Origin: Geosiphon pyriformis uo1
Lineage: Eukaryota; Fungi; Glomeromycota
Assembly: GCA_016748015.1 (NCBI GenBank)
Contig: JAAOMT010000420.1
Coordinates: 124,001-188,000, forward strand
Direction of reading: 5' to 3'
DNA length: 64,000 nucleotides
Part shown: positions 1 to 26,064 of the stretch, in pieces
How positions within the stretch are numbered: the first letter of the stretch is position 1
Layout of the letters: every line of letters starts with the position of its first letter
Notes under the pieces: generated by a model
Database searches by the model: none
What the model saw: only the letters and a program-made list of their open reading frames with translations
Told to the model about the DNA's origin: nothing
Made by a program: the position numbers and the translations under genes

Positions 1-3000
1 TAGCATGGTAATGATATTTCTTACATATCTCATGTCAATTATTCCTCCTCTTATATTTATCCCTCTTTTCACTAGACTACTCCTAAATGCTAATTGAACC
101 ATTGTTGTTGCCAAAATTTTCAGTGCTATTTTCAAATCAATGCAGGTGCATAAATGTGGTTCCAATTTGATGGCATCTTTTCCTAGATACCTCAGATCAA
201 ACCTGGCATTGGTATTATGTGCACATTCTGGTATAATACTTTCATTATTATCATTGAACCATTTAAGTTCCTGTTCCTTAGTGAGGTCAGGAAGTGCAAT
301 ATATTGTTCATAGTTTGGATCGGGGTTTAAATCTGAGTTGGAATTGTTGTTATTGTTTTCGCCATATTGAACGGAACTGGAACCAGTGTTTTTGTTGTCA
401 TTGTTGTTGAAGTTTGAATTGAGATTGAATGGTGATTCCAATTCCAATGCGCAGCTGCTGATTGGTTCTTCCTTTTCTGGGATTGTGTAGATCATGCGTG
501 GTGGTAGATTGTAGATGAGGTCACACTTATTACAATACTCAAAGTCACTGGGGATTAAATAATGGCAACACAGTCTTGTATTTAATTGTTCTAGTTATTG
601 CTCTTGCTTTTTTCTAGTAAGAGCTAATTCTCGGTAGTGTTTGTGAAATTGTTCTGGATCTAGAAGATTTATGACTGGTTCTGGGTCCCAATCAAGTTCT
701 ATGGGTTCTGGTGAGTTGTTTTTAACTGTCCTGATTTCTTCTGGCAACACGCCTTTGATTTTGGCAAGTGTCATTTGCCATATTTTGTCGTCATTGTGTG
801 GACAACTGTCCAATCAATATACAGTTCTTTTCCAAGTGGCTTTAATTGGTGTCCCTTTCCTAATCCAGTCACTAATGAGAATTGTGTATTGGCATGATTC
901 ATCACACATTTTCCCTCTTTCAGGAATGTCATTCCACATTCTTTCGTTGAGAAGAGTTTCTCCACAAGCTAAACATGGTGTATTATCCCATTTTTCCACT
1001 CGTTTTGGTCTTCCAAAGTGTTCAACAAGGCATGTGTGGCAATAGAACTTAGTTGCCATCTGGTATTCCTTATCGTCACTACAGCATGCTCCCATTAATG
1101 ACAATTTCTTACCACAATCAATGCATATTAGCTTTAAATGACAATAGATAGATTGTTGTGGTATAGTGTAGGCATAGGAGTTATGAATGATAGTGGTTAC
1201 TTCTTCTTCCTTTTTCCTTTGTGTTTTCTTCCTCCCATACCCAGCTTGTTGTTGGTTTGCTTTCATCATGGTTGGTCCAGGTCAGATTGTCTGTCTCCCA
1301 GGTAGGTTCTTCTTTTTGTTTACCCTTTCTATTGTCATCCTATAAGAGTATTGGCGGCAGCTTGTTGTGTTCTTTGTTGGCCCATAAGACTTAATACACT
1401 TTCCAGGTAGGTTTTGGTTTTTTTTTTTCGAAGTCAATTAGTGGTACTGTGGTGTTAGTAGCCTTGAAGTAACCACACATTGCTAGTACTCACATGTGTT
1501 GACCATTTTGGTTCAGCTGAAGTTCTTGCATGTTCTAATCTAGTGTTGTATTAGTCTTGGACAGCCAGTCATTCCCAATAAGTGTTTAGTATTGAGTGGC
1601 TTTTATCACCAGAACTTTGATGGATACTACAATGCCATTGACTTTAATTGGGAAGTCATTGGTCTTTCCAATGGGTGTTTTGGTCATTCCATTAGCTGTA
1701 ATAATCCTGGCACTAGCAGCGCGATCAACTCAGCAACCTAATTGATCCATGAGTTGTCGTGTGATGATGCTGCCTGCTAAACCACTGTTAAGAATTAATT
1801 TGATGGAGTGGCTATCAACCTTGGCATCTGTATACAGACAGTGATCGGTTTCTCTTCAAGTACAGTTCCACTGAATAATGGCACATCTGACAGTTTTTCG
1901 AGTTCGAATGGAAAAATGGCATCTAAAGATTCATTTTCAGTGATTGTAGCAGATGGAATATTATTGGTAAGTGGTTGTTGTTGTTTGATTTCCGGATTGC
2001 TAAATGTGGTGTCTTCTGGAGTCACTAGAAGGCTTAAATAGTGTTGGGAATTTGGGTTTTGGGTGAAACTGGTGCCTGAATTCCACTGACAAGATCTTGA
2101 TTGTTGGTGGGAAGAGCTGAGGATTAGTTGATATACAACTATCGCTGATCTCCAGTTTTGGGTGATCCTCAATCTTGGGTTTCCTGATGTCATTTAAGCT
2201 GGGTTTGCTGGTGGTGTTTGAATGATGAGTGTTTGATAGATTGCTGGTCGCTGTGGTTGATATATTACTTGTGGCTCCACCTGATAAATTACTTGTGACA
2301 GCAGTTGATAAACTAGAGTTTGATAAACTGGCAGTTGATAAATTGGTTGGTGCATCATAAGCAGATAAGTGGGTTGGTATTGGTCTTGATTCAGATAATG
2401 GTTTGGAGTTTGGAACTGGCGATTGGGGTTTCTATATTGATTTTCTAATCGTAGATTGCTATAAGTATGGCAGTTGGCTCTGATGTGCCCTTGTTTACCA
2501 CAGTTGTGGCAGATGCACGTTTCTGGCTGTTACGACTAATTGGATGATGACAATAGACATGACTGATTTTGGAAATAATTCGCGTTTCCCTGATTGTTAT
2601 GCCATTGAGGAGGTTGATAAATCATGTGATTGTCAGCTAAGTATCTCTCTAATTTCTGATTAATTAAATCACTGAATTGCTTCAATTTGGAATCCAATTC
2701 AGATAATCTATTCATTGCTAGATTCACAGCTTGGGCGTAATTAGCTTCTAGTTCAGCTGCTTCAAAATCTTTGGCATATGTGACTGTGGTTGAAAGGTCT
2801 ACTGAGTGCATTGGATGTATTCGTTGTAGGATGCTACTGTGCAATCTTCTAATAAATTGATTTAAAATCTGTGGTGCTGTAAAATAATTGGCTTGAATGG
2901 CTTGTATTTGGCATAAATTTCTATAGAAGCATTCTAAGTAAGTAGTAACTGCTTCAGTGTCTCCTTGTCTGATTGTTGTAAAGGTGTTGGCTAATTTGTT

Positions 3001-4245
3001 GATATTATTATTGTTGCTAAAGTACCACAAGAATTCAGTTTTGAATCCATTAAAATTTTGGGATTTAACAGTGAGACTTTGATATCATGCATTAGCGGTA
3101 TCCTGGAGAAAGTAAGAGATCGCTTGCATTGTTCTAGCATTATCCCAATTATTGGCTGTAATGGTTTTGGCCATGTTATTTAACCAGACTTAGGCATCAT
3201 CTTCTTCACCATTGAATTTGTCAAGTTTTGTGATGAGTACGTAAGCCATTTGTTGTTGCTGTGGTGGTAAAAGTTGTTGTTATTGTTGGGGCAGTACTAG
3301 TGGTGGTTGTTGATTTTATTGGTTCAGTGGTTGAATGGGCTGGCCAATTGGTTCAATGGGTGGTTGATTGATGATGATAACTGGAGGTAAGTGTTGATTA
3401 ATTACTTTGAAATTTGGATTGTTCTGATTTGGTGGGGTTTGAATATTCAGAGTGTTATTTTCTGAATTGTCTAAATTGGGCTGGGTTTGAAAGTTTGGGG
3501 TTTCAATTTTCGGGTTTTCTAGGATCAGGTTTTGGTAAGTAAATTCTTGATCCTCAGATTCTTCTTCCTCTTCTATTTCTTGTTTTCCTTTTGATTCAGT
3601 AATTTCCCAAAAACTCACAATTCTGAAATTTGGATGAGATGGTGGTGATCAAAATCCTGATGGTGTTGGCGATCGAGATTTAAATCTTTCAAAATACTCG
3701 CCATATGGTCCTAGTAGATCCTTTTTCCTTTGTTTACTTTGGAATAAGAAACATCCAAATGCTGATGTCACATTTAATGTGGATGCATCTGTTGATGATA
3801 TATTGATAGCACTTCCAAAGGTATAGTGCTAAGATGGGTTGTTTGGGAACTCAACTCTAGTTTTCTTCCAAATAGGTGGTTGTATCCTTTGAGGTGTTAC
3901 TGCTAGTGTTTGTAGTTTTCCTTTGCCTTTACTTGTGTAAGTAATTGGATATCTTTGCTGTATGTGGTGTTTAATTTCTTTGTTGATCTCAGTAATGATA
4001 GATGCAAAATTATGATTTGTGAGTAGGCTGGTGTTTTGATTTAATTTGTTGTAAAAAGTTTCTCTTACTGATTCAATATTCATGGATGTTTCTAATAGAT
4101 AGGCAATTTTTTTGTTGACATAGAAATTGAAAGCTGATTCTGCTGATATGTGATTATGAGTTAATCCCAAATGTTGACAGTAATGTTGAAATAAGGATTT
4201 CACAAATCTTAGATGGTTTGCTCCAATGTTTTCTGATTTTGCCAC
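1..4245 (-). pseudogene. Element A gag-pol (partial): Gag, CCHC knuckle, aspartic protease, Zn-finger region, N-terminal part of dUTPase
   Basis: ORF fragments 3829-4305, 2536-3030, 1795-2193, 814-1269 and 595-813 are colinear with element B, with many stop codons. Confidence 0.9.
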
Positions 4246-4287
4246 TTTTGGATGGGGTTGTTGGTGCTGGTTCTCTGTAGGATTATA

Positions 4288-4304
4288 TCTTACAGAGAGC
4301 ACCA
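4288..4304 (-). promoter_or_regulatory. Primer-binding site of A
   Basis: Reverse complement begins TGGTGCTCTCTGTAAG, 2 nt inside the LTR. Confidence 0.8.
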
Positions 4305-4306
4305 AA

Positions 4307-4571
4307 TATTACAGGTGACTATTTTTGGTGTTGGATTAAATAACAAACCTGTAACTTGGTACTAAAAGTTATTTGCATTGATGTTATTAATCTGAAGGTT
4401 TTGATTTGAGTTTTTTGTATAATAAACAGAAATTCAATAGTGGTTTTATCCATAGCTTCCCAGAATTGCAATTCTGTCAATTTTTTTTTTGGTGTAATGG
4501 CCAGCAATTCTCTGGTAAGTATTCTGTATCTTCTGTACATGTCCTACTCTCTCGCAGAGGTCTTTTACCAG
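4307..4571 (-). repeat. 5' LTR of A, U5 part (interrupted by B)
   Basis: Homologous to the reverse complement of the 3' end of the B LTR. Confidence 0.9.
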
Positions 4572-5458
4572 TGTTACTCATAGAAATATAGAAAATATAT
4601 TAGCATAATTATTAGCCAATCAGAAGTAAGCATAGTAAATGTGGAATTCCAGGATTCCTCTCAGGAATTGCAGGATTCCAGGAATTTCAGGATTCCCGAC
4701 GAGGAATTGCAGGATTCCAGGATTTCAGGATTTCTCTCAAAGGAATCGCAGAATTCCAGAAATTCTAGGATTTCTGTTGTGAAGAATCGAGGAATTGAGG
4801 AATCTCAATTATGTATATATAGCAGTAGTGTTAGAAACAGAAAAGACAGAATTGATACCACAGAATCCTTAGCCTAGAAAACACAATCATCAAATAAATA
4901 ATTATTTCATATCTCAACTCACTCTCCACTATCAACACTTCATGTTGATAATAATTGATACTTAACCATGCTGGAACAATAGCTCTTGATCATGGCTATT
5001 GACGGAATACTAATCTGCAAAATTGCCTTGGCTTATTTCTTTCTTTCTTTATTTTTCTTTTATTTCTTGTTCTTTATTTTATTTTGATTTGTTGTTGTAT
5101 ATTAACTGATTAAAAGGATTAAGTGCTGAGTTATTGATGTCAAGGATAGCCTGGTAAAAGACTCAGAAATAAGGGTAGAATTTTATATATTATCGGATAG
5201 CTTACCAGAAGGGCACGACTGTCAGACTAAATCCGGCCACCATGCTGAGAAAGAAATTGGGAAAACTCTTGAAAAGATACATCTATTATCGACACTATTG
5301 AATCTCTGTCCATTATACAAAGGACTCAACCAAAACCTTTAAACCCATCAAAACCTTCAGATACAACACTTACAGAACATCATTAACAGAAATAGCTTTT
5401 GAGCACCAAGTTATGGGTTTGTTATTTAATTCAACCACAGAAATAATCATCTGTAACA
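4572..5458 (+). repeat. 5' LTR of B
   Basis: Direct repeat of 13884-14770. Confidence 0.97.
4614..4822 (+). promoter_or_regulatory. Putative U3 promoter: CCAAT box (AGCCAATCAG), GGAATTCCA/GGATTCCA repeat array, TATA-like box
   Basis: Same motifs in the same order in every family-1 LTR that retains this region; function inferred. Confidence 0.6.
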
Positions 5459-5460
5459 TT

Positions 5461-5477
5461 TGGTGCTCCCTGTGAAG
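5461..5477 (+). promoter_or_regulatory. Primer-binding site of B
   Basis: TGGTGCTCCCTGTGAAG, complementary to a tRNA 3' end (...GGGAGCACCA). Confidence 0.85.
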
Positions 5478-5520
5478 TATAATCCTACAGAGAACCAGCA
5501 CTGACAACACCAAACCAAAA

Positions 5521-8500
5521 GTGACAGAATCAGAAACTATAGGAGCAAACCATTTAAGATTCGCAAAATCTTTATTTCAACACTATTGTCAATACTTGAG
5601 ATTAAACCACAATCATATATCCGCCAAATCAGCCTTCAATTTCTACATCAACGAAAAGATTTCTTCTTTATTAGAAACACCAGTGAATATTGAATCAGCA
5701 AGGGAAACTTTCTATAGGGAATTAATTCAAAATACCAACCTGCCAACAAATCATAATTTTGCATCCATCATCATTGAGATCAACAAAGAAATTGAACATC
5801 ACACTCAACAAAGATATCCAATTACATATGCTAGTAAAGACAAGGGAAAATTACAAACACCAGCAGTAACACCCAGAAAGATACAGCCACCTGCTTGGAA
5901 AAAAAACAGAGTTGAATTCCCAAGCAACCCATCCTACCACTATACACCTGGAAGTGCCATTAACATATTATTAACAGACATGTTCACATCAACTGCGACA
6001 TTAGCATTTGGACAATTCCCATTCCAAAGTAGACAAAAGAAAACAGAATTGTTAGGACCATATGGCGAGTACTTTGAGGGATTTAATTCGTGATCATTAA
6101 CACCATCAGAACTTCAATCACCACCACCTCCACCAGATTTCAGAATCTCTGATCCATGGGAAGCAGCGGAATCAGAAAAAAAGGAAGAAGAATCAGAGAA
6201 TCAAGAATTCACTTATCAGCACCCGATCACTGAAAACCCAGAAGTTGAAACACCGAACCTTCAAACTCAGCAACAGTTAGAAAATCCGGAAATCAAAACC
6301 CTGAATATTCGAACGCTGCCAAATCAAAGAAATCAAAAACCCGAATTAATTTATCAGCAAAACTTACCTCCAGTAATTGTCATCAATCAACCGCCAATTA
6401 ATCCCTTAGCCGAACCCATACAGCAGTCACTTTAGCTACCACCCCAACAGCCAGAACAACAACAACTGCTTCAACAGCCACCACAACCACCTAACTTAAA
6501 TCCAATGGCCTATGCACCAATTGCAAAACTCGACAACTTTACTGGCGAAGAAGATAACACTCAAATATGGCTGAATGATGTAAAAAAAGCCATTGCAGCC
6601 AACAGATGGAATGACACATGAGCAATGCAAGCCATTCCCTACTTTCTCAAGAATACTGCCAATTCATGGTACCAGAGCTTGATTAATAAACCACAAGATT
6701 TCAATGCCTTCAAAGCAGAATTTCTGAGATACTTCAGCAACAATAATAGTATCAATCGCCTAGTTAATGCATTCACCACCATAAAACAAGGAGAAACTAA
6801 AGCAGTTACCACTTACCTGGGATGCTTCCATCAAAACCTATGCCAAATTCAAGCAATTGACACCAATTATTTCACAGCACCACAGATACTCAATCAGTTT
6901 ATCTGTGGCCTGCACAGCAGCATCTTGCAACATGTACGTCCATTGCATCTTGGCATACTTCAAGATGCAGTCACACGTGCCAGAGATTTTGAATCTGCCG
7001 AGTCAGAGGCTAACCATGTCCAAGCCATTAATCTAGTCATAAATGAATCATCTGAATTGGATTCCAAATTGGAGAAATTCAGTGAATCAATTAATAAGAG
7101 ATTGGAAGGATACTTAGCTGACAATTACATCATTTATTAGCCTCCACAATGACACAATAATCAAGGAAACTCTAATCGTGGCCAAAATCAACCACGCCCA
7201 TCTTCATCAACCAATCAACAGTGGCAACAGGAAACGTGTATCTGCCACTATTGTGGAAAACAAGAACATATCCAAATTGATTGTTGTCAGTGTCTAAATA
7301 ATCAACGATCAGGAAATCAATATTGAAACCCTGATTGCCAGTTTCAAACTCTGAATCATTATCCAAATCAGATTCAAGACCAATATTGAAATAATTACCT
7401 GCCCATGACACAGCAACCAATCTATCACCTGCCAGTATATCAACCTCCAATTCATCAGCCGCAGCCACAAGTAATATATCAACCGCAGCCACAAATTATC
7501 TATCAACCCCAACCAATTCAAACACCAACCCAGAACTCAGCTCAAATGACATTAGGCAACCCTTGATCCAGAGTCACTCAAAACTGGAGATCAGCAATGG
7601 TTGTTCACCAACCAATCCCCAGTTTACTAAACTCACCATCAGGATCACGCACCCGGAAGTTGGATACCAGTCATGTCCAAAACCCAAATTCTCAACATTA
7701 TTTAAGTCTCCTAGTTACCCCAGAAAATGCCATCTCCAACAACACAGAATTCAATCAGCACATACCTACCAACACCATTCCACTGGCAACCATCTCTAGC
7801 AACAAATCCCTAACAGTCATTTTTTCTTTCGAACTTGAAGAAAACACAACAATACCATTATTCAGTGGAGCCACCCTCGAAGAGAAATCCATAACAGCCA
7901 TGTACACAGATGCCAGAGTTGATGATCCCTCCATCAAACTCATTCTAGATAGTGGATCAGCTGGCAGCATAATCACTAGACAACTTATGGATCAATTAGG
8001 TTACCAAGTTGATCGAGCTGTCAGCACCAGAATCATCACAGCCGATGGAGTGACCAAAACTCCAATCAGCAAAATTGATGATTTCCCTTTTGAAGTCAAT
8101 GGTATCATGACTCCCATTAAAGTTCTAGTAATGGAAGCCACTTAATATCAAGCTCTCATTGGTAATGACTGGCTATCCAAAGCCAATGCAACGTTAGACT
8201 AGAACACCCAGGAACTCCAGCTAACGTATCAGGGCCAATACATACGTGTTCCAGCCACATGTGGCCACTTCAAAACTCTTCCAAGAAAGAAACTATTGAT
8301 TGAGCTGGAGGAGAAGAAAAAAAAGCCTACCTGGGAAGCCTACCAAGTATCGTGGGCTGACGAAGAGCACAACAAGCTGCCGCCAATACTCTCCTGGGAT
8401 GACAACTATCAGGAAAAAGGGAAACAAAAGGAAAAACTTACCTGGAAAACCGATGACCTGACATGGACCGACCACGACGAGAGCGAACCGACTTCAAGTT

Positions 8501-11500
8501 GGGAATGGGAAGAAGACAATAAAAATAAAGAGAAGAGAAAAGAAAAAGAGACCACTCAAACCACCACCACTTATAACACCTACACTACATCACAACAATC
8601 TACCTATCGTCGACCCAAGCTTATCTGTGTCGATTGTGGCAAGAAATTGTCATCAATGGGTGCATGCTGTGGGGACAATGAGAAATATTCAATGACAACT
8701 AGGTTCTATTGCCGCCCATATGTCCTTGAACACTTTGGAAGACCAAAATGAGTAGGAAAATGGGACAATCAGCCATGTTTAGCTTGTGGAGAGACTCTTT
8801 TGGATGAAGAAATGTGGCATGACATTCTTGAACATAGAGGAACATGCGATGTATTGTGTCAATACACGATTCTAATAAGTAACTAAGTAAGGAAAAAAAC
8901 CCCAATAGAAGCAGCCTGGAGAAGAGCAGTACAGCAATTGGACAGTTACCCACATAACGACAACAAAATTTGGCAAATGACACTTGCAAAAATTGAAGGG
9001 GTGACACCAGAAGAGATAAAAACGATCAAAGACAACCCCCCAGAACTTTTAGAGCTTGACTGAGATGCAGAACCCATCATAAACCTCTTGGACCCAGAAC
9101 AATTCCATGAACACTATCAAGAATTAGCACCCACAAGGGAAAAACAAGAACAACGGTTAGAGCAGTTGAACACTCGACTATGTCAACACTGCCTAATTCC
9201 CTGTGACTTCTAGTATTGCAATGAGTGTGATCTTATTTACAATCCACCACCACGCATGATCTACACAATCCCGGAAGAGGAAGAACCAATCAGCAGCTGT
9301 GCATTAGAATCAAAATTGCCGATCAATCATGATTCAAACTTCGACAATGACAATGACAACAACAGTTCAAGCTCTGTTCAAAAGGGCAATAACAATAACA
9401 ATGATTCCAACTCAGATACAAACTCCAATGTAAACTATGAACAATACATTGCACTACCAGATCTCTCCAAGGAACAAGAGTTGAAATAGTATAGTGACAA
9501 TGGGGAAGATATTATGCCAGAACGGGCGCATGATACTGATGCAGAGTTTGATCTGAGATATCCAGGAAAAGATGCCATCAAATTGGAACCACATTCACGC
9601 ACCTGCATTAATCTGAAAATAGCACTAGAAATTCCGGCAACAACCATGGTTCAACTAGCATCTAGGAGTAGTTTAGCGAAAAGAGGGATTAATATAAGAG
9701 GAGAAATAATTGACATGGGATATGTAGAAAATATCATCGCTATGCTACAAAATGACTCAGAAAAGACCTATGTAATAGAGCCCAATGAAAAGATAGCACA
9801 GGCAATATTCCTGCCTCTGATTAGAATAGCTCAGTTAGTATCAGTGGGAAAGAGGGAGGAATTAGGAATAATGGTGAGAGGAATACAAAAATTCGGATCC
9901 ACAGGTAGAATAGATGTACCAGTTAACATGGCAGAGGAAGAAATTGTTGGCCAAGGAGAAATTATCTCAACTGGTCAAGCTATTTCTATTCCACCATATA
10001 GCCAGTACATGTTAGCAATAGAAAGGAAGGAAAAGGAACAAGAACAGATGTTTGAAATGGAAGCAACCCTTTGTGAATCGGGAGAGATTGGATTGATCAA
10101 TCTCTACATATCAGCCAAAAGCTATAGCAGCATAAAAATTCTCATCTACAACAATACTGGCAATGTTATCAGCATACCAGAAGGAACTACCATCGGATAT
10201 TTGACCACAGAAATAGAAGACCAACCACCAAACTCCATTCTAGACTTTCCACAACTTTGTGGATATGTTGACATCACATCACAAACAATCTATGGACGAG
10301 ACAAATGTTATTTGCTCCAACCAGAACAATTGGAACAAATGAACATGGGAAACTTAGATCCATTCTAATATATGCAGCTCAAGATGTTACTCAACAATTT
10401 TAATGACATTTTTGCCAGCAAAAATGAGTTTGGCTAAACTGACATCATCCAGCATCAAATCAAGACTGGAGATGCAATGCCAATCAAACAAAGAGCATAC
10501 AGAGTGCCACCAGCCAGCCACGAGATTATTTGTCAAGAGATAAACAGAATGCTTGACAACGGGCTAATTCAACCATCAATGAGTCCATGGTTGTCACTAG
10601 TGGTACTCGTCCATAAGAAAAATAGAAAAATCCAGTTTTGTGTGAACTACAGAAAACTCAATGGTGTAACTCGTGGAGACAGTTATCCAACTCCATAAAT
10701 ACAGGAATTATTCGATGCTTTCGGTGGAAATAAATGGTTCTCCACATTAGATTTGGACAGTGGTTACTGGCAAGTAGCCATGAATTCAGCTGACAAAGAG
10801 AAGACAGTATTTACTACTAGAGAAGAGAATTTCGAATTTGAAGTAATGCCATTCAGCTTAACCAATGTCCCAGTGACTTTCCAACAGCTAATAGAAATTG
10901 TTTATACAGGCTTATTGTGGAAATCAGTAGTTGTATACTTGGATGACACCAATGTATTCTCAAAGACATTTAATGATCATCTTCATTATCTTCAACAAAT
11001 GTTCGAAAGACTAAGAAGAGCAGGACTGAAGCTAAATGCGACAAAGTGCTTCTTTGGCAAGATGGAACTCAAATTCTTGGAACACATAGTTAGCAAAGAC
11101 GGCATCAAAATGGATCCAGAGAAAATAGAGATAATAAAGAACTTTCCAGTACCAACCAATATAACAGAACTGAAATCATTCTTGGGATTTGCCAGCTACT
11201 ATTGTCATTTTATCAAGAACTTTTCCAAGATAGCGCAGCCACTTAATCAACTACAAAACAAAAATGTGAAATATGAATGGACAGAAAGTCAACAAAAAGC
11301 TTTTAATATTCTGAGGAAAAAGCTTATCCAAGCTCCAGTGCTGATCTATCCAGATTACAGCAAACTATTTATCATCACCATTGATGCATCCGGCCAAGCA
11401 TTGGGAGCAGTATTATCTCAGAGAGGACCAGATGGCAGAGAACATCCAGTAGCATATGCCAGCAGAGGTTTAACACCAGCTGAAAAGAACTATAGAACAC

Positions 11501-11739
11501 TGGAACAAGAACACTTAGCAATATACTGGGCCGTCATGAAATGGAAAGAATACTTGAACCAGAAGTTTGAAGTATACACAGATTACAAGGGATTGACATC
11601 ACTCCAAAAACAAGAATTTGGAGATAGAAAACAGTCAAGATGAAAAATGGCACTCGCACCATACAATTATACTATACATTACAAAAAAGGAAAAAACAAT
11701 GGAAATGCTGATGGTTTATCACGAATAAGACAAATCTAA
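5521..11739 (+). pseudogene. Element B single-frame gag-pol: N-terminal extension, capsid (ATG 6505), CCHC (~7240), protease (DSG 7948), Zn-finger region (~8620-9235), dUTPase (9514-9906), dUTPase-like relic, RT (YLDD 10936), RNase H
   Basis: Track ORFs starting at 5521, 6625, 7597, 8296, 9256, 9514, 10477 and 10753 share one frame, broken mostly by CAA/CGA/TGG-type stops; ends ADGLSRIRQI*. Confidence 0.93.
9514..9906 (+). pseudogene. Trimeric-type dUTPase domain within pol of B
   Basis: Motifs (A)GFDL, ASRSS, GIIDxGYxG, EKIAQ and RGxxGFGSTG are recoverable across copies A-E. Confidence 0.93.
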
Positions 11740-11802
11740 GAACATTTCAACCCAAAAATATAATAAAACCAGAACAATACCAATGGAAAAATACAACAAA
11801 AA

Positions 11803-13185
11803 ATGAACATACAAAAATATCAACAATTACAACATTATCTAAATACTTAACAGTTCAAAGAGAATTTATCTTATACGGAACGAAGAAGTATCAAACAACA
11901 ATCAAAATATTTTATCACTTACCAAAATATACTTTATTGGAAAAATAGAAGAGATCCAAATCAACCAACCAGAGTAATCACAGAGCCAGAAAAAGAGACA
12001 ATATTATTCAACATATACTCAAATCCAACAGCAGGACATTTTCATAAAAAAGCAACCATAGAAAGAACCAGAAAAAGATACTATTGGCCATCAATGTATT
12101 CAGATATCATCCAATATGTTCAAAATTGCGATGTCTGTCAGCAAAGAGGAGGTATAAAATCCAGTGAACCGTTAAGATCAATCAAAGTGGGACAACCATT
12201 CGACTGTATTGGAATTGATTTAGTCGGACCATTAACAATCACCAGCAGAGGAAACAGATACATAGCAGTAGCTATAGACTATCTCACTAAATGGCCAGAG
12301 GTGAAAGCAATTCAAAGAGCGGATGCAAAATCTGTTGCTGAATTTATTCATCAGGATTTGATTTGTTGACATGGATGTCCAAAAGAACTATTATCAGACC
12401 AAGGAACTCATTTTGTAAACAGAACATTAACAGAATTGAGCCAAAGATTCGGAATCAAGAGACCATTATCATCACCATACCATCCACAAACCAATGGATT
12501 AGTAGAAAGATTCAACAGAACATTGTGTGAAGCAATAGCCAAGCTCAGCCAAGAAAACCAGAATAATTGGGATTTGTTCATACCATCAGTATTATTTGCT
12601 TATCGGACAATAAAACAAGATACTACACAAGCAACACCATTTGAATTAGTATACGGGAGAATAGCAACATTACCAGTAGAGAGAGAAATTAATACATATC
12701 CAGCTGAACCAATAACAGAGGAAAATTTTCAAGAAACATTGCTAAGAAGAACATATAACTTAATGGAAACATTAGAAAACAAACAAAGAAGAACAGCTGA
12801 TAATATTCAAAAGTCACAAGAAACGCAGAAAAAAAGACATGATAGTCAACTACCAAACAAACCAATTGAATTCAAGATCGGAGACAAAGTATTACTACAT
12901 CATACCAAAGCGGAAAAACAATGGAGTGGAAAATTTGACCCCAAATGGGACGGACCATTTCACATAGAAGAAATTTTAGGAAATGGAGCTTACAAATTAA
13001 GATTGGATAACAAAATTTTAACCAAAGCAGCACATAGAGATCGACTGAAACTATATCACAACATTACATTACCATCTACCAGTAATATTCTACAATTAGG
13101 AGTACAGAGAATACTAGTCCAACCAGATGAAATTTCATGAGATCTGGAACCAATTATCATCATTGACAACAACATGTTAAATTGA
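11803..13185 (+). pseudogene. Stand-alone DDE integrase ORF of B (HHCC, D-D-E core, GPY/F module, no chromodomain)
   Basis: Own ATG (MNIQKYQQL...), AGHF...CDVC, IGIDLVGPL, LSDQGTHF, GLVERFNRTL, KFDPKWDGPF. Confidence 0.9.
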
Positions 13186-13209
13186 TCCATCAAAAGAATA
13201 TATAAAAAC

Positions 13210-13869
13210 ATGGTAGACACAACAGGAAATATCAGAAAAATGAAAATTACAGACAACATTCACTCACTAGCACAACAACTCTTTCAATTAATCCAACACC
13301 AGGAAATGGAGATTACAATCAATCAACAAACCATTCAATATCAAGATACTAGAAAAACATTTCAACTCAGAACACAGAAGAAAACTGAAAATACCATGGA
13401 CAAAATCATGGTGAAAGTAAAATTAGCAATAAAAAAATCGACAAAAGAGTCATTATATCAAGAGTTGACTAAAGAAACTTGGAATTGGTGGATACAACAA
13501 TTTCCACAAAACTATTGTTATTTTTACTTGGGACAACATGTAAATATTCAGAATCTATATACAGATAAAACAAAGCGATTATTCGACAAAAGAATACTAT
13601 AACAATTAAAACATTTTGTGAAAAAAAACAACTTATCCACACAAGCTTGAGCCATATACCAAATACACACAGCATTTCAAGATAAACCAGAAATATTACG
13701 CAACAGAGCAATGGATATGGTTACCAGTAATCAACTGGGGAAAATCACCAATGCTCAATTTGAAGAATTACAGACCCAAATAACACAAGTAATTCTCGAA
13801 AACAAAATCTAGGAAATACTTCAAGAAGGGGAATTACATGAGTTAAATTTCGACGGAGCTCAATATTAA
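13210..13869 (+). pseudogene. ORF3 of B, unknown ~210-220 aa protein between integrase and PPT
   Basis: Track ORF 13210-13602 continues in frame to LNFDGAQY*; homologues in C, D and E. Confidence 0.8.
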
Positions 13870-13883
13870 AAAAGAAGAAATAA
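13868..13883 (+). promoter_or_regulatory. Polypurine tract of B
   Basis: AAAAAAGAAGAAATAA abuts the 3' LTR (D has AAAAAGAGGGAATAA). Confidence 0.8.
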
Positions 13884-14770
13884 TATTACTCATAGAAATA
13901 TAGGAAATATATTAGCATAATTATTAGCCAATCAGAAGTAAGCATAGTAAATGTGGAATTCCAGGATTCCTCTCAGGAATTGCAGGATTCCAGGAATTTC
14001 AGGATTCTCGATGAGGAATTGCAGGATTCCAGGATTCCAGGATTCCTCTCAAAGAAATCGCAGAATTCCAGGAATTCCAGAATTCCTGTTGTGAAGAATT
14101 GAGGAATTGAGGAATCTCAATTATGTATATATAACAGTAGTGTTAGAAACAGAAAAGACAGAATTGATACCACAGAATCTTTAGCCTAGAAAACACAATC
14201 ATCAAATAAATAATTATTTCATATCTCAACTCACTCTCCACTATCAACACTTCATGTTGATAGTAATTGATACTTAACCATGCTGGAACAATAGCTCTTG
14301 ATCACGGCTATTGACGGAATACTAATCTGCAAAATCACCTTGGCTTATTTCTTTCTTTCTTTATTTTTCTTTTATTTCTTGTTCTTTATTTTATTTTGAT
14401 TTGTTGTTGTATACTAACTGATTAAAAGGATTAAGCACTGAGTTATTGACATCAAGAATAGCCTGGTAAAAGACCCAGAAATAAGGGTAGAATTTTATAT
14501 ATTATCGAATAGCTTACTAGAAGAGCACGACTGCCAGACTAAATCTGGCCACCACGCTGAGAAAGAAATTGGGAAAACTCTTGGAAAGATACATTTATTA
14601 TTGACACTATTGAATCTCTGTCCATTATACAAAAGACTCAACCAAAACTTTCAGACCCATCAAAACCTTCAGATACAACACTTACAGAACATCATCAACG
14701 GAAATAGCTTTTGAGCACCAAGTTACGGGTTTGTTATTTAATTCAACTGCAGAAATAATCACCTGTAACA
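13884..14770 (+). repeat. 3' LTR of B
   Basis: Direct repeat of 4572-5458; first TG mutated to TA. Confidence 0.97.
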
Positions 14771-14774
14771 CCAG

Positions 14775-16089: not shown

Positions 16090-16885
16090 TATTACAGGTG
16101 ACTATTTCTGGTATTGGATTAAATAACAAACCCGTAACTTGGTGCTCAAATCTAGTTGCAGTTGATAGTGATCTGAAGGTTTGTGTCTGAAGGTTTGTAT
16201 TCAAAGGGTTTGGTTGAGTTCTTTGTATAATGAACAGAGATTCAATGGTAATAGTTTTATCTGTAGCTTCCCAAAACTGCAGTTTTGTCAATTTCTTTTT
16301 CAGTTTGATGGCCAGTATTCCTCCTGGTAAGCTATCCTCAATCGAGTGTTTTACCCTTATTTCTGGGTCTTTTACCAGTCACATTTATCCTGACGTTAGT
16401 ACCTTATACATTAATCCTCAATAGAGTTAATAAACAACAATAAAATCAAAGCAAGAAAATAAAGAAAAGAAAAGAAAATAAAGAAAAAAAAGAAATAAGC
16501 CAAGGCAATTTGCAAGTTAGTATTCTGTCAATAGCCATAATCAAGAGCTATTGTTTCAGTAGGGTTAAGTATCAATTACTATCAACACTTCATGTTGATA
16601 GTGGCAGCGAGTTTGAGATAACAAACAGTTATTTATTTGTGGTTTGAAAAGTTGTTTAGATGAAATCTAAACTGAGAGGTCTGTCTCTTTCAGCTTCTTA
16701 TATTACTACTATATATACATAATTGAGATTCCTTAATTTCTCAATTCTTTACAACAGAAATCCTGGAATTCCTGGAATTCTGTAATTCCTTTGAGAGGAA
16801 TCCTGGAATTCTGGAATCCTGCAATTCTTTGTGAGAATCCTGTAATTCCTGGAATCCTGCAATTCTTGAGAAGAATTCTGGAATT
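16090..16885 (-). repeat. 3' LTR of C (lacks start of U3)
   Basis: Homologous to 25194-~25990. Confidence 0.92.
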
Positions 16886-17404
16886 ACTGATAACCATATC
16901 CATTGCTTTGTTGAGTAGGATTTCTGGTTGATCCTGAAATGCTGTGTGTATTCGGTATATGGCTTGGACCTGTGTAGATAAGTTGTTTTTTTCCACAAAA
17001 TGTTTTAATTGTTGTAATATTCTTGTGTCAAATAATCACTTTGTTTTATCTGTATATAGATTCTGAATATTCACATATTGTCCCAAGTAAAAATAACAAT
17101 AATTTCTTGGAAATTGTTGTATCCACCAATTCCAAGTTTCTTTAGTCAACTCTTGGTATATTGACTCTTTTAATGACTCTTTTATTGCTAATTTTACTTT
17201 CACAATAATTTTGTCAATGGTATTTTCTGTTTTCTTCTGTATTCTATGTGATGATGTCTTTCTAGTGTCTTGATATCAGATGGTTTGTTGATTAATTGTA
17301 ATTTCCATCTTTTGGTGTTGAATTAATTGAAAAAGTTGTTGTGCTAATGAGTGGATGTTGTCTGTAATTTCCATTTTTCTGATATTTTTTGTCACATCTA
17401 CCAT
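16886..17404 (-). pseudogene. ORF3 of C (3'-truncated)
   Basis: MEITDNIHSLAQQLFQL...KAMDMV, homologous to B ORF3. Confidence 0.8.
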
Positions 17405-17428
17405 GTCTTTATATATTCTTTTGATAGA

Positions 17429-18811
17429 TTAATTTAACATGTTGTTGTCAATGATGATGATTGGTTCCAGATCTCGTGGAATCTCCTTTAGTTGAATTAG
17501 TATCTTCTGTACTCTTAATTGTGGAATATTATTGGTGGATAGTGGTGTGATGTTGTGATATGGTTTCAGTTGATCTCCATATGCTGCTTTGGTTAAGATT
17601 TTGTTATCCAGTCTTAATTTGTAAGCTTCATTCCCTAGAATTTCTTCTATGTGAAATGGTCTATCCCATTTGGGATCAAATTTTCCACTTCATTGTTTTT
17701 CCACTTTGGTACGATGTAAGAGTACTTTGTTTCTAATCTTGAATTCAACTGGTTTGTCTAGTAGTTGATTATCATGTCTTTCTTTTTGTTTCTCTTGTGA
17801 CTTTTGTATGTTATCAGCTGTTCTTCTTTGTTTGTTTTCCAATGTTTCCATTAAGTCATATGTTCTTCTTAACAATATTTCTTGGAAATTTTCTTCTGTT
17901 ATTGGTTCAGTTGAATATGTGTTAACCTCTATCTCAACTGGTAATGTTGCTGTTCTACCGTATATCAATTCAAATGGTGTTGCTTGTGTGATGTCTTACT
18001 TTATTGTCTGATAAGCAAATAATACTGATGGTATGAACAAATCCCATTTGTCCTGGTTTTCTTGGCTGAGTTTTACTATTGTTTCACACAATGTTCTATT
18101 AAATCTTTCAACTAATTTATTGGTTTGTGGATGGTATGATGATAATAATGGTCTCTTAATTCCGAATCTTTGGCTTAGTTCTGCTAATGTTCTATTCAAA
18201 AAATGGGTTCTTTGGTCTGATAATAGTTCTTTTGGACATCCATGTTGACAAATCAGATCTTGATGGACGAATTCGGCAACAAATTCTGCATTTGCTCTTT
18301 GAATTGCTTTGGCTTCTGGCCATTTAGTAAGATAGTTCATGGCTACTGCAATATATCTATTGCCTCTGCTGGTAATTGTCAATGGTCCGACTAAATTAAT
18401 TCTAATACGGTCAAATGATTGTTCTATTTTGATTGTTCTTAATGGTTCACTGGGTCTTGTTTCTCCTCTCCTTTGACAAGCATTACAATTTTGCACATAT
18501 TGAATGATGTCTGGATATATCGATGGCCAATAGTATCTTTTTTTAGTTCTTTTTATGATTGCTTCTTTATGAAAATGTCCTGTAGTTAGATCTGAGTGCA
18601 TGTTGAACAGTATTGTCTCTTTTTCTGGTTTTGTAATTACTCTGGTTGGTTGATCTGAATCTTTTCTATTTTTCTAATAAAGTATATTTTGGTGAGTAAT
18701 AAAATATTTGGATTGTTGTTTGATCTTCTTTTTTTCTGGTTGAGATAATTTTTCCTTGAACTGTTGAGTATCTATATAATATTGAAGTTGTTAATATTTT
18801 TGTGTGTTCAT
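17429..18811 (-). pseudogene. Integrase ORF of C
   Basis: ATG at 18811; track ORFs 17996-18601 and 17690-17968 carry HHCC, DDE and GPF motifs. Confidence 0.9.
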
Positions 18812-18872
18812 CTTTTGTTATATTTTTGTAAGTATTGTTTTGGTTTTGTTATATTTTTGGGTTGAAATATTC

Positions 18873-21800
18873 TTAGATTTGTTTCATTCGTGACAAACTG
18901 TCAGCATTTCTATTGTCTTTTTCTTTTTTATAATATATAGTATAATTATATGGTGTGAGTGCCATTTTCCATCTTGACTGTCTTCCATCTCCAAATTCTT
19001 GTTTTTGGAGTGATGTTAATCTTTTGTAATTTGTGTACACTTCAAACTTCTGGTTTAAGTATTCTTTCTATTTTATAACTGTCCAGTATATTGCTAAGTA
19101 TTCTTGTTCTGGTGTTTCATAGTTTTTTTTGGCTGGTGTTAAGTCTCAGCTAGCAAATGCTACTGGATGTTCTCTTCCATCTGGTCTTCTCTAAGATAGT
19201 ACTGCTTCCAATGCTTGACCTGATGCATCAGTAGTAATAATGAATGGTTTGTTGTGATCTGGATAGATCAATACTGGCACTTGAATAAGCTTTCCTCTTA
19301 AAATGTTAAAAACTTTTTGTTGTGTTTCCATCCATTCATATTTTGCATTCTTGGTTTGTAGATGGTTAAGTGGCTGAGCTATTTTAGAAAAATTTTTGAT
19401 GAAGCGACAATAATAGCTTGCAAATCCCAAGAATGATTTTAGTTTGGTTACATTGGTTGGTACTAGAAAGTTCTTTACTATTTCTATCTTGTCTGGATCT
19501 GTCTTGATATTGTCTTTGCTGACTATATGTCCCAGAAAATTCAGTTCTGTTTTGCCAAAGAAGCACTTGGTAGCATTTAGCTTTAATCCTGCTCGTCACA
19601 GTCTTTTGAATACTTGTTGAAGATGATGGAGATGATCATCAAATGTTCTTGAGAATACATTGGTGTTGTCCAAGTACAACTACTGATTTCTACAATAAGC
19701 CAGTGTACACAATTTCCATTAGTCATTGGAAGGTTGCTGGGACATTGGTTAAGCCGAATAGTATTACTTCAAATTCGAAATTTTTTTCTCTTGTGGTGAA
19801 TGCCATTTTCTCTTTGTTGGCTAGATCTATGGCTACTTGTCAGTAATCACTATCCAAGTCCAATGTTGAAAACCATTTGTTTCCTCCAAAAGTATCAAAT
19901 AACTCTTGAATCCATAGAGTTGGATAGCTGTCTCCATGAGTAACTCCATTGAGTTTTCTGTAGTCTACACAAAATCTGATCTTTCCATTCTTTTTCCAGA
20001 TGAGTACCACTGGTGATGACCATGGGCTCATTAATGGCTGGATTAGCCCATTGTTAAGCATTTGATTAATCTCTTGACAAATGATTTCATGGCTTGCTGG
20101 TGGTATTCTCTATGCTCTTTGTTTGATTGGCATTGCATCTCCAGTTTTGATCTGGTGTTTGATGATATCAGTTCTGCCAAATTCATTTTTGCTGGTGAAA
20201 ATGTCATTGAAATTATTAAGCAACATCTTAAGCTGCATCTGTTGAAATGAATCTAGATTTCTCATGTTCATTTGCTTTAGCTGCTCTGGTTGTAACAAAT
20301 AATATTCATTCCATTCATAAATTGTTTGTAATGTAATATCCACATATCTACACAATTGTGGAAAGTCTGGAATGGTGCTTGGTGGTTGATTCTCAATTTC
20401 AGTGGTCAAATATCCAAGAGTAGTTCCTTTTGGTATCTCCACAACATTTCCCATATTGTTGTATATGGGAATTTTGATATGGTTGTGGTTCTTGGCTGGT
20501 ATGTATAGATTGATAAGTCCAACTTCTCCTGTTTCACAAAGACTTGTTTTCACTTCAAAAATTTGTGCCTGATCCTTCACATTTTTTTCTATTGCTAACA
20601 TGTACTAGCCATATGGTGGAATGGAAATTGTTTGACTGGTTGAAATAATTTCTCCTTGGCCAATAATTTTTTTCTTTACTATGTTGACTGGTACATCTAT
20701 TCTACTCATGGATCTGAATCTTTGTATCCCTCTTGCGGTTATCCCTAATTCTTCCCTATTTTTTACTGAAACTAACTGAGCTATTTTAACCAGAGGCAGG
20801 AATATTGCCTGTGCTATCTTCTCATTTGGCTCTATAATATAGGCTTTTTCAGAGTTATTTTGTAGCATGGCAATGATATTTCCTACATATCCTGCATCAA
20901 TTATTCCTCCTCTGATGTTTATTCCCTTTTTCACTAAACTACTCCTAGATGCTAATTGAATCATTGTTGTTGCTAGAATTTCCAGTATTATTTTCAGATT
21001 AATGCAAGTGTGCAAATGGGGTTCCAATTTAATGGTGTCTTTTCTTGGATATCTTAGATCAAATCCTGCATCAGTATCATACACACATTCTGGCATAATA
21101 CCTTCATCATTATTACTGAACCATTTTAGTTCTTACTCTTTGGTGAGGTCAGGGAGTGCAATATATTGTTTGTAGTTTAAATCAGAGTTTGAATCTAAGT
21201 TGGAATCATTGTTATAGCCATTTTGAACAGAGCTGAAACCATTATTTTTGTTATCATTATTGTCGGAGTTTGAATTGGGATTGAATGGTGATTCTGATTC
21301 CGATGCACAGCTGCTGATTGGTTCTTTTTCTTTGGGGATTGTGTAGATCATGTATGGTGGTGGATTGTAAATGAGGTCACACTTATTACAATACTAAAAG
21401 TCACATGAAATCAAACAGTAATCACATAATCAAGTGTTAATTTCTTTCAAGCATTGTTTTGGCTCTTCTATTGTGGGTGCTAATCACTAGTAATGTTCGT
21501 GAAATTTTTCTGGGTCATCCTCAATGTTGCAAAAGACGTCGAAAGTTTGGATGTATTTGGGTTCAGGAAGAAATAAAGGATTGTTTTTTTATTTCCAGTA
21601 ATTTGTTAGTTGTCATGCCTTCTGCTTTTGCATGTGCCATTCTCCAAAGTTTATGTTCATCGTGAGAATATCCTTCCAATTGTTGTAGTGCTTTTTTCTA
21701 TGCATCGTCAATTGGTGTTCTCTTGCATATCCAGTTGTTTATTAAGATAGTGTACTAGTATGTCTTGTTACATGTTCCTTCCCACCCAGGAATGTTATTC

Positions 21801-24800
21801 CACATTCCTTTGTCAGACAAGATAGTTCCACATGCAAGACATGGTTGATTGTCTCACTTTTCTTGTTATTTTGGTCATCCAAAGTGCTCTATGACACATG
21901 CACGGCAGTAGAATCTGGTGGCCATTGAATATTTCTCATCGTCGCCACAGCATGTGCCTATTGACAACAATTTCTTGCCACAATCAACACATATTAGCTT
22001 TGGTTGATGATAATTAGTTGGTGGTGATGGATATATGTGTGAATTATAAGTAGTGGTGTCGGTAAGTGTTGTTTTTTCTTCCTTCTCTTTTCCCTTCTCT
22101 TTATTGCTTTCTTTGTTTTCTTCCCATTTCCAGTTTGATGTCAGTTTGTCATTATCAGTCCAAGTCAGGTTATCTGTTTTCCAGGTAAATTCTGCTTTTT
22201 GTTTTCCTTTCCCATTGTTATTGTTATCCCAGGAAAGTATTGGTGGCAGTTTGTTATAGTCGACATTGGCCCATAATACTTGATATGCTTCCCACGTTGG
22301 TTTGTTTTCTTTCTTCTCGAATTCAATAAACAGTGTTGTTGTCCTGACATTGCTGGGTTTGAAATGGCCACACGTTGCTGGGACTCACGTGTGTTAGCTA
22401 TTTTGGCTGAGTTGGAGTTTCTGAGTGGTCCAGTCAAGCATTGTGTTGGTTTTGGATAATCAATCATTGCCAACGAGTGCTTAATACTGAGTGGCTTCCA
22501 TTACCAGAACTTTGATGAGTATTGTGATGTCATTGACTTCAATAGGGAAGTTATCTATTTTGCCAATTGGAGTTTTAGTAGCTCTATCAGCAGTGATAAT
22601 TCTTATACTGGCAGCGCAATCAACTCAGCGACCTAATTGGTCCATGAGTTGTCTTGTGATGATGCTGTCAGCTGATCCACTATCTAGGATTAGTTTGATG
22701 GGGTGCCCATTAACTTTTGCATCAGTGTACATCACAGTAATAAGTTTTTCCTCAAGTGCTGCTCCACTAAACAATGATGAGTTAATGGTTTTCTCTAATT
22801 TAAAAGGAAAGATGGTGGCAAGAGTTTCATTTTCAGTGACTGTTGCTGGTAGAATATTGTTGGTAAGTGTTGTTGGTGGTTGATTTGATTCTGGGTTGTT
22901 GGAGGTGGTGTCTTCTGGAGTAACCAGAAGACTTAAATAGTTCTGAGAATTTGGGTTCTGGGTGTGACCAGTGCCCAAATTCCAAGATCACAACCCTAAT
23001 GGTGGGGTTGATGAGCTGGAGATCAGTTGGTAGACAACCATCACCAATCTCCAGTTTTGAGTGATTCTAGATCTTGGGTTTCCTAATATCATTTGAGTGG
23101 AGTTTTGGAGTGGTATTTGAATTGGTTGTTGGGGCTGATAAATTATTTGAGACTGCAGCTAATAAATTACTGGTGGCTGTGGTTGATAAATTGGAGATTG
23201 ATATATTGGTGGTTGATAGATTGGTTGCTGTGTTATTGGCAGGTAAATAGTTTGATATTGGTCTTGATTTGGGTAGTGATTCTGAGTCTAAAATCTGCAA
23301 TCGGAGTTTCGATATTGATTTCTTGATCATGGATTGTTGTTATAAAATTGACAGTCAGCTCTAATGTAACCTTGTTTACCACAGTTGTGGTAGACACACA
23401 TCTTTGGCTGTTGCAACTGATTGGTGTAGGATGATGGCTGCGATTGATTTGGGAAACAATTCATGTTTCCTGAATTATTACGTCATTGTGGCAGTTGATA
23501 AATTGCCTGATTGTTGTTAGCTAAGTATCCCTCTAATATCTGATTAATTGTTTCCCTGAATTTCTCCAATTTGGAATCCAATTCAGATGACTTGTTCATC
23601 ACTAGATTAATGGCTTGGATGTGGTTGGCCTTGAACTCAGCTGATTCGAAATCTCTGGTGTGTATGATTGTGTCTTGAAAGGTGTCAGGATGTAACAGAC
23701 GTACATGTTGCAAGATGCTGCTGCACAGGCCATGGATAAACTGGTTGAAAATCTGTGGTGCTGTGAAATAGTTGACGTCAATTACTTGGATTTGGCGTAG
23801 ATTTCTGTGGAAGCATCCCAAATAAGTGGTGACTGCTTCAGTTTCTCCTTGTTTCATGGTGGTAAAAGTATTGACTAGGCAATTGATACTGTTATTGTTG
23901 CTAAAGTATCTTAAAAATTCCACTTTGAAGGCATTGAAGTCTTGTGGTTTATTAATCAAGCTCTGATACCACGAATCAGTGGTATTTTTGAGAAAGTAAG
24001 GAATGGCTTGCATTACTCAGACATCATTCCATCCATTGGCTGTGATGGCTTTTTCCACGTCATTCAGCCATACCTAAGTGTTGTCCTCTTTGCTGGTGAA
24101 ATTGTCAAGTTTTGCAATTGGTGCATAGGCCATTGGATCTAAGTTGGGTTGTTGTAGTGGCTGTTGAAGTGGTTGTTGTTGCATAGGTTGTTGGGGTGGT
24201 AGTTGAAGTAGCTGCTGTATGAGTTTGGCTATTGGATTAATCGGTGGTTAATCGATGACGATTACTGGAGGTAAGTTTTGTTGATTTATTAAATTGGGGT
24301 TTCAATTATCCTGAATTGGCGGTGTTCTAATATTCAGAGTTTCGATTTTGGGGTTTTTTTGATTTGAATTTCTTGGAGTTTGATTATTCGGGGTTTCAAA
24401 TTCCGGGTTTTCAGGGATCAGATTTTGGTAAGTGAACTCTTGATCCTCAGATTTTTTTTTTCTTCTTCTTCTTGTTCCTCTTCTTTGGATAATTCCAATG
24501 AAGTAGCGGTGCTGAAATCTGGTGGTGGTGGTGGTGATCGGAGTCCTGATGGCATTGATGATCACAAGTTAAATTCTTTAAAATACATGCCGTATGGTCC
24601 TAATAACTCTGCTTTTCTTTGTTTACTTTGAAATGGGAATCATCCAAATGCTGATGTCATGTTTGATGTGGCCATGCTGGTAGATGTAATATTAATGGCA
24701 CTTCCGGATGTATAATGGTATGATGGATTAGTTGAGAACTCAACTCTTGTTTTCTTCCAAGTAGGTGGTTGTATTCTTTTGAGTATTACTGTTGGTGTTT

Positions 24801-25134
24801 GCAGTTTTCTTTTGCCTTTTCTCGCGTAAGTAATGGAATATCTTTGCTGTGTGTGGTGTTCAATTTCTTTGTTGATTTCTGTAATGATAAAGGCAAAATT
24901 GTGATTTATTGGCAGGTTGGTATTTTGAATTAATTCACTGTAAAAGGCTTCTCTTGCTGATTTGATATTTACTGGTGTTCCTAACAAATAGACAATTCTT
25001 TTATTGACATAGAAATTGAAAGCTGATTCCACTAATATGTGGTTGTGATTTAATCCTAAATGTTGACAGTAGTGTTAAAATAAGGATTTCATGAATCCTA
25101 GATAGTTTACTTCTATGTTTTCTGATTCTGCCAC
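18873..25134 (-). pseudogene. gag-pol of C (Gag, PR, Zn fingers, dUTPase, RT, RNase H)
   Basis: Track ORFs 24640-25032, 23483-24013, 22625-22978, 20605-21096, 20110-20601, 19840-20061 and 19191-19430; ends LSRMKQI*. Confidence 0.92.
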
Positions 25135-25174
25135 TTTTAAATTTGTGTTGGTGCTGGTTCTCTGTAGGATTATA

Positions 25175-25191
25175 CCTCACAGAGAGCACCA
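25175..25191 (-). promoter_or_regulatory. Primer-binding site of C
   Basis: Reverse complement is TGGTGCTCTCTGTGAGG. Confidence 0.85.
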
Positions 25192-25193
25192 AA

Positions 25194-26064
25194 TGTTACA
25201 GATAACTATTTCTGGTGTTGAATTAAATAACAAATTTGTAACTTGGTACTCAAATCTAGTTGCAATTGATAGTAATCTAAAAATTTGTGTCTGAAGGTTT
25301 GTATTCAAAGGGTTTGGTTGAGTTCTTTGTATAATGGACAGAGATTCAATGATAATAGTTTTATCTGTAGCTTCCCAAAACTGCAGTTTTGTCAATTTCT
25401 TTCTCAGCTTGATGGCCGGTATTCTTCCTGGTAAGCTATTCTCAATCGAGTGTTCTACCCTTATTTCTGGGTCTTTTACCAGTTACATTTATCTTGACGT
25501 CAGTACCCCATGCATTAATCTTCAATAGAGTTAATAAACAACAATAAAATCAAAGCAAAAAAATAAAGAAAAGAAAAGAAAATAAAGAAAGAAAAGAAAT
25601 AAGCCAAGGCAATTTGCAAATTAGTATTTCATTAATAGCCATGATTAAGAGCTATTGTTTTAGTGGGGTTAAGTATCAATTACTATCAACATGAAATATT
25701 AATAGTGGCAGTAAGTTTGAGATAACAAACAGTTATTTATTTGTGGTTTGGAAAGTTGTTTAGATGAAATCTAAACTGAGAGGTTTGTCTCTTTCAGCTT
25801 TTCATACTACTGTTATATATATATAATTGAGATTTCTCAATTCCTCAATTCTTCACAACAGGAATCCTGCAATTTCTGGAATCCTGCAATTTCTTTAAGA
25901 AGAATCCTGGAATTCTGGAATTCTGCAATTTCTTATGAGAATCCTGTAATTCCTGAAATCTTGCAATTCCTGAGAAGAATTCTGGAATTCCACATTTACT
26001 ATGTCTACTTCTGATTGGCTAATAACTATGCTAATATATATTTCCTATATTTCTATGAATAATA
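25194..26064 (-). repeat. 5' LTR of C
   Basis: Full-length family-1 LTR in reverse orientation. Confidence 0.93.

Follow-up and report, generated by a model that had tools for sequence, protein, structure and literature searches.

LTR elements normally bring integrase to the particle as part of Pol, and the locus shown above raises the question of whether one lineage carries the enzyme in a reading frame of its own, how such an integrase might be made, and to which known elements it is related. In the textbook Ty3/Gypsy layout, as given in the available text of PMC3248453, the integrase lies inside the Pol polyprotein.

Self-comparison and end inspection showed that the window, the whole 64,000-nucleotide stretch of DNA that was analysed, is a nest of decayed LTR retrotransposons, resolved as the family-1 elements A, B, C and D and a family-2 element E with an internal solo LTR. 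Their LTRs are direct, with TG...CA ends accompanied by a PBS and PPT, and Pfam domains occur in Gypsy order (gag, protease, dUTPase, RT, RNase H, integrase). Named homologues were found in Rhizophagus irregularis, where intact copies are numerous, R. clarus and Cetraspora pellucida, so that a fungus of Glomeromycotina type is the likely host. Element A (1..4571, minus strand) is truncated ahead of RNase H by the start of the window, and its LTR continues at 14771-15349, with the outer flank CTGG. Inside this LTR lies element B (4572..14770, plus strand), a full-length, decayed family-1 LTR retrotransposon with LTRs at 4572-5458 and 13884-14770, flanks CCAG/CCAG and a PBS-like TGGTGCTC at 5461. 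Fragments of gag (Retrotrans_gag, Ty3 capsid) and aspartic protease were assigned by Pfam to 6625..8145, and a dUTPase-reverse transcriptase-RNase H region with private stops to 9514..11736 by Pfam and a B/C/D codon alignment. The TAA that closes RNase H is followed by a 63-nt unstructured spacer (11740..11802), a stand-alone integrase at 11803..13185 (YPYY-type N-terminus, H2C2 zinc finger, rve core and GPF/SH3 end, interrupted by three private stops) and, 24 nt after the integrase stop, an ORF3 of ~219 codons without a Pfam family (13210..13869), all on the plus strand.

Element C (16090..26064, minus strand, flanks TTGG/CTGG) is inserted in a LINE and carries deletions at the start of its 3' LTR and the end of ORF3. 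Element D (43735..64000, plus strand, left flank CCAG) is cut by the window end, has its 3' LTR from 63629 and contains element E (46983..57777, minus strand), whose LTRs lie at 57777-56794 and 47963-46983 with flanks CCAC/CTGC on the plus strand. The integrase of E (50186-48801) is followed by a 149-nt spacer and by ORF3 from 48651, on the minus strand, and a family-2 solo LTR lies within E (52323..53281, plus strand, flanks CCAG/CCGG). The LTR insertions of the window are mostly at CCGG-like sites. Two diverged LINE-like non-LTR copies with RT and RNase H matches were also observed at 31348-43118, inverted tail to tail around a 10% GC stretch (36000-38300) and with an RRM in ORF1 at 30110-30769; more LINE fragments, at 15348-16089 and 26065-28727, are separated by element C.

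The initial annotation had described a stop codon five codons past the RNase H 'LSR' motif in all four copies that span this region. The stop stands at that position in 4/4 copies, but element D has LLQ rather than LSR. The spacers of 63, 61, 51 and 50 nt and the integrase ATG starting Met-Asn were likewise found in 4/4 copies, in B (TAA 11737-11739, ATG 11803) and D (TAA 61496-61498, ATG 61550) on the plus strand and in C (TAA 18875-18873, ATG 18811) and E (TAG 50239-50237, ATG 50186) on the minus strand, with spacer lengths in the order B, C, D, E; for the two minus-strand copies, the stop coordinates given earlier were those of the last base of the codon. All four spacers are A/C-rich and G-poor with no predicted fold, that of D is in frame without a second stop, and those of B and D each contain an additional ATG. 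The spacer is also enriched in indels, taking 2/5 internal indel events in ~2% of the aligned length. The presence of a stop and a separate integrase ORF in all four copies is thereby confirmed.

Stops are common in these copies through C>T decay, because the LTR pairs differ almost only by transitions (transitions/transversions 43/0, 70/4 and 37/1) and CpG is at 0.23 of expectation. With copies so heavily hit by transitions, an origin of the stop by CAA>TAA could still be proposed from the three family-1 copies alone. Across 946 aligned codons of RT-RNase H-integrase in B, C and D, a stop was present in at least one copy at 31 positions, and only that at 11737 was a stop in all three; the expectation for such triple stops from 76 stop-prone sites, assuming independence, is 0.05. 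In the contigs of X1, a run perhaps made from the source sample, the private stops of B at 11641 and 11848 were reverted in 83% and 61% of depth, and no change at 11737 occurred among the 40 of 124 variant rows listed, which were ranked by an unstated rule. Taken with the stand-alone homologues and split metagenome loci described below, the sole B/C/D triple stop shows that the shared RNase H stop is not a product of decay.

The distribution of the split was studied in homologous proteins and in metagenome loci. The best 120 of 1782 near-length homologues of the integrase, from a search that was unable to show fused forms, were all integrase-only proteins of 392-453 aa with 45-52% identity, and 119 of them had a Met start. 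Among the best 120 of 689 longer homologues, fused forms were no more than 39% identical, except for four fungal gene models. Three of these (P0121, P0122 and P0124) lack the end of RNase H as well as the N-terminus of integrase, a gap of the kind that a predicted intron would cause; in the fourth (P0125), RNase H is followed by a long insert. A single protein called in prokaryote style, P0127, is truly fused, 38% identical, and nests among the split rows in both integrase and RT trees.

Among 80 metagenome loci surveyed, 34 contained both RNase H and integrase (the remaining 46 were too short, started in the Pol extension or lacked a match to RNase H), and these comprised 25 split loci, 8 fused loci and 1 of a frameshifted fused type. 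The fused loci that were put in trees (L049, L067, L074, L075) were placed outside the split group; the split rows did not form one supported clade, and L050 and L057 strayed. The 25 split junctions ranged from overlaps to spacers (-14 to 727 nt) and used all three frames: 7 were overlaps of -1 to -14, ATGA and TAATG included, 11 were spacers of 24-93 nt and 7 were spacers of 156-727 nt. The integrase start fell in one alignment column for 30/30 split rows. Locus L001, placed with B and E by the RT tree (SH-aLRT 90), has its stop 3 codons past LSR and a 24-nt G-free, CA-rich spacer, and L029 has two chained ATGA-type overlaps. An extra ORF encoding a restriction-endonuclease-like domain (Mrr_cat_2, E 5e-9) was observed in the latter directly before integrase (L029:521-1234), with ATGA-type overlaps on both sides. 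Locus L034 represents a complete element: its two LTRs are 96.8% identical, and the frames for Gag-PR, RT-RH, integrase and ORF3 are all intact. In viral contigs, only 3 distant integrases were found.

These stand-alone homologues, the 25/34 split loci, the intact L034 and the varied junctions indicate that the split is old and functional and that the junction is variable. The tri-cistronic layout proposed earlier, Gag-PR-RT-RH / integrase / ORF3, thus holds as a lineage trait with intact relatives, L034 included, as does the proposal that integrase requires its own initiation, since intact relatives show it in a separate frame. The window elements are a Ty3/Gypsy variant belonging to a fungal lineage with a separate integrase ORF.

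The ORF3 of B is homologous to that of L001 (E 1e-11), as is the ORF3 of E (E 2e-17). In the main clade, ORF3 encodes ~140-150 aa and is represented by 443 clusters (L019:6633-7061 and relatives); its model is a confidently folded all-helical domain (pLDDT 95.5) for which PDB (best Z 5.1), BFVD, Pfam and Atlas offered no clear match, a result from which neither novelty nor a function follows. The window ORF3 gave no match to the main-clade ORF3 profile and reaches it through L001 only (L001 to profile: E 0.001, probability 19%). Homology between the two would accordingly be a weak proposal, because the link runs via L001 alone.

In a sister subclade, that with a Pol C-terminal extension, a ~40-nt covarying stem with an invariant purine-rich internal loop lies 0-35 nt upstream of the integrase ATG. 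A covariance model detected one copy in each of 15/81 loci (L010:4464-4500, L013, L015, L017, L019, L020, L023, L025, L027, L028, L037, L038, L039, L044 and L048), 14 of which had served to train it, with L013 and L010 nearly identical; a 16th, weak copy was seen in L014. Two-sided changes were seen at 7/12 pairs, 98.8% of cells pair, and 0/500 shuffles reached this covariation, in controls that ignore relatedness. The stem was absent from the window in the model search, had 0 matches in viral contigs and, for 16 loci submitted, had no match in Rfam. One match in genome contigs (CM 14.7 bits), on a bacterial contig without integrase, was taken as chance. The stem points to possible RNA-level control of integrase synthesis. 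Two further features were observed in the survey. A second shared short word lies upstream of the integrase ATG in L052:1-50, L055:30-78, L059:95-142 and L034:7370-7432, with no common fold found among the four, and an acidic extension of 236-315 aa that follows RNase H, contains a conserved Cys/His cluster and belongs to no Pfam family is present at L010:3503-4438, L019:4351-5163, L023 and L028.

How the integrase might be translated was weighed on the form of these junctions. Stop-restart translation is favoured because overlaps and short unstructured spacers fit termination-reinitiation, and for this family the chances that it is correct appear about evenly balanced. Ribosomes that terminate at the RT-RNase H stop would traverse the short, unstructured spacer and initiate again at the integrase ATG on the full-length RNA, and ORF3 would be reached by a second restart or the same trick. 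Integrase output would then be lower than that of Gag-RT, and the free enzyme would be taken into the particle through contacts with Gag, RT, RNA or cDNA ends and not via a polyprotein. Other subclades would probably use additional cis signals, for example a structured RNA element. In the available text of PMC5972666, restart is proposed across a 63-nt spacer for LINE-1 ORF2 and likewise at the SART1 overlap junction, and that of PMC3542737 describes restart at AUGA or UAAUG overlaps in victoriviruses, together with the statement that reinitiation downstream of a long ORF is uncommon and dependent on special signals. No such signals were identified at the junctions examined, and the TURBS motif UGGGA occurred within 100 nt before the stop in 0/29 cases. 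A stop between protease and RT in read-through-type contexts (TGA-CTA, TAG-CAA-TTA) was also observed at L008:870, L024:3290, L033:1585, L034:3358 and L040:929. In these five loci RT itself lies behind such a stop, so very little integrase would be left by restart, which counts against this reading.

Restart would also have difficulty with the long spacers, which hold as many as 12 upstream ATGs in L034 and 7 in L008, and the additional ATG in the spacers of B and D speaks against it as well. These ATG-filled leaders (7/25 loci) would suit an integrase made from its own shorter RNA, produced by an internal promoter, processing or splicing in the manner of retroviral env or foamy-virus pol. A separate RNA would also uncouple integrase from the PR/RT read-through of the five loci, the integrase start has a good context, which counts for restart as well (purine at -3 in 21/24 examined), and ORF3 raises the same problem again. 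However, a YAG acceptor after the last upstream ATG is absent in B, C and D and in 9/24 junctions overall, and stop/start overlaps (7/25) would be pointless on a separate RNA; a shorter RNA is therefore regarded as rather unlikely. Internal ribosome entry before integrase, independent of upstream translation, would call for an unstructured A-rich leader here and a folded element in the sister subclade. The covarying stem right before the integrase ATG is consistent with it, but the stem is missing from the window and limited to one subclade, and could equally serve to hold restarting ribosomes in place, as a binding site for Gag or integrase, or as the marker of an RNA end. The 'CAA-leader IRES' put forward in the initial annotation does not generalize, as relatives have overlaps, U-rich spacers or a structured element, and internal entry is judged an unlikely route.

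One further interpretation is that integrase belongs to an ordinary polyprotein, the stop being read through or a shared decay mutation, or an intron joining RNase H to integrase. In-frame spacers in D (51), B (63), L001 (24) and L006 (63), the rampant C>T decay, the fungal gene models that join the domains via predicted introns and the fused P0127 are all compatible with this, and, were two stops discounted as the result of decay, the reading frame before the 50-nt spacer of E would extend to an ATGA overlap. Yet the spacers are spread over all three frames and differ in frame even where loci are closely related (L006 63 versus L045 64), ORFs are intact on either side of the junction in many loci, and the X1 contigs revert private stops of B, with no change at 11737 among the rows listed. 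Moreover, the PR/RT stops have known read-through contexts, according to the available text of PMC3542737, whereas C follows only 1/25 RNase H stops. Read-through of the RNase H stop is thus unlikely, since frames differ between close relatives and the contexts seen at PR/RT are missing there, and the polyprotein reading as a whole is very improbable.

The initial annotation had further suggested a Gypsy-to-Ginger1 intermediate. In the available text of Bao et al. 2010 (PMC2836005), Ginger1 is defined by TIRs, CCGG/CCGT duplications, YPYY and GPY/F motifs and Ulp1/OTU tails, with CCGG as the target in 75%; the same text grouped no Gypsy lineage with Ginger1 and assigned the YPYY motif to several Gypsy groups whose integrase is fused. 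Athila/Tat, Cer1, Gypsy-1-I_RO and DGLT-A are among the YPYY bearers that it lists. The resemblance stands at the level of traits, namely the YPYY-type N-terminus, TGT...ACA ends and, less clearly, CCGG-like 4-bp sites, but not as a supported tree grouping. The YPYY-type motif, aligned by eye, precedes the zinc finger and its second position is often not Pro, and the start Met of 30/30 split rows shares a column with that of 6/13 Ginger1-like rows. CCAG, CTGG or CCGG was present on at least one side of 5/6 insertions (background 0.9% per site), one flank being literally CCGG, and 5/6 sites are CCGG-like once CpG decay is allowed.

Integrase trees were built on the zinc finger-core-GPF region with 90 rows (quick) and with 60 rows after removal of 30 near-redundant ones, the Ginger1 rows being labelled from Pfam domains and similarity and not from TIRs or Repbase references. 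The backbone gave no supported order of Ginger1-like, plant Tat/Athila-like and split integrases, and the split rows need 4-5 changes on the tree. Forcing Ginger1-like and split rows into one clade cost 22 log-likelihood units (p-AU 0.07), so that such a clade was neither rejected nor demonstrated, and chromodomain- and SCAN-bearing rows formed a separate group (96/99). Among the 12 loci checked, inverted repeats flanking integrase were found in none, and no integrase-only element was found. Seven loci without RNase H upstream (L013, L015, L017, L020, L025, L039 and L044) were rejected as integrase-only elements, as they have the Pol C-terminal extension. The element is not a Ginger1 member; that it is a relative is plausible but unproven, and an intermediate position is not supported, with the tree order unsupported and no integrase-only element found. 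The fullest form of the idea, a large polycistronic fungal Gypsy lineage with a new RNA element for integrase start, non-polyprotein packaging and a role as the living source of Ginger1 (hence GIN1/GIN2), is considered unlikely. If it were true, inverted ends would have been all that a free, Met-initiated, CCGG-targeting integrase lacked to turn into a DNA transposon, and a missing step in the origin of the Ginger1 superfamily would be supplied.

A widespread, recently active lineage with integrase outside Pol implies an unusual mode of eukaryotic translation for the second and third cistrons and a different route for loading integrase, and its overlaps, short spacers and structured leaders provide natural test cases for restart after a long ORF. 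Annotation pipelines may label such integrases DNA transposases, or fuse them to RT through false introns. No description of a separate Gypsy integrase ORF was found in the literature covered, outside which lay Repbase and most subscription journals; none is given in the available portions of PMC3248453, PMC3383448, PMC13468544, PMC5751038, PMC6839031, PMC11952901 and PMC10275272, or of bioRxiv 10.1101/2021.03.30.436303 and 10.1101/2021.09.26.461848.

Among known systems, LINE-1 ORF2, SART1 and the victoriviruses share a second cistron after a long ORF, reached across a 63-nt spacer (LINE-1) or an AUGA/UAAUG overlap, as described in the available text of PMC5972666, PMC3542737 and PMC10275272. 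Those systems are non-LTR elements or dsRNA viruses in which the downstream protein is the polymerase, and restart there was put to the test, whereas here it is proposed from sequence. Chromovirus and Gmr1-like elements differ in that the integrase here has no chromodomain and does not precede RT (Pfam). The YPYY Gypsy groups have the same N-terminal motif, and in the integrase tree the plant Tat/Athila-like rows lie, with weak support, on the side of the split rows, but the plant rows compared are fused polyproteins; Cer1, Gypsy-1-I_RO and DGLT-A enter the comparison through their published description. With Ginger1 and GIN1/GIN2, as described in the available text of PMC2836005, the window elements share an integrase of ~400 aa with a YPYY-type start, H2C2, DDE and GPY/F, together with TGT ends and, less clearly, a 4-bp CCGG-like target, but they have LTRs, Gag and RT and have neither TIRs nor a Ulp1/OTU/PHD tail. 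The likeness to Ty3/Gypsy (Metaviridae, for example yeast Ty3) extends to TG...CA LTRs, PBS, PPT, Gag and the order PR-RT-RH-IN, and to an integrase with H2C2, a DDE core and GPY/F (WDGPF in translation), for which Ty3 Gag-Pol (7q5b) was the best solved-structure match of the profile (E 1e-46). Unlike Ty3/Gypsy, these elements have a dUTPase between PR and RT and an extra ORF3 without a known family, and their integrase lies outside the Pol frame; it is because the integrase is not within the Pol polyprotein that they are filed as a Ty3/Gypsy variant.
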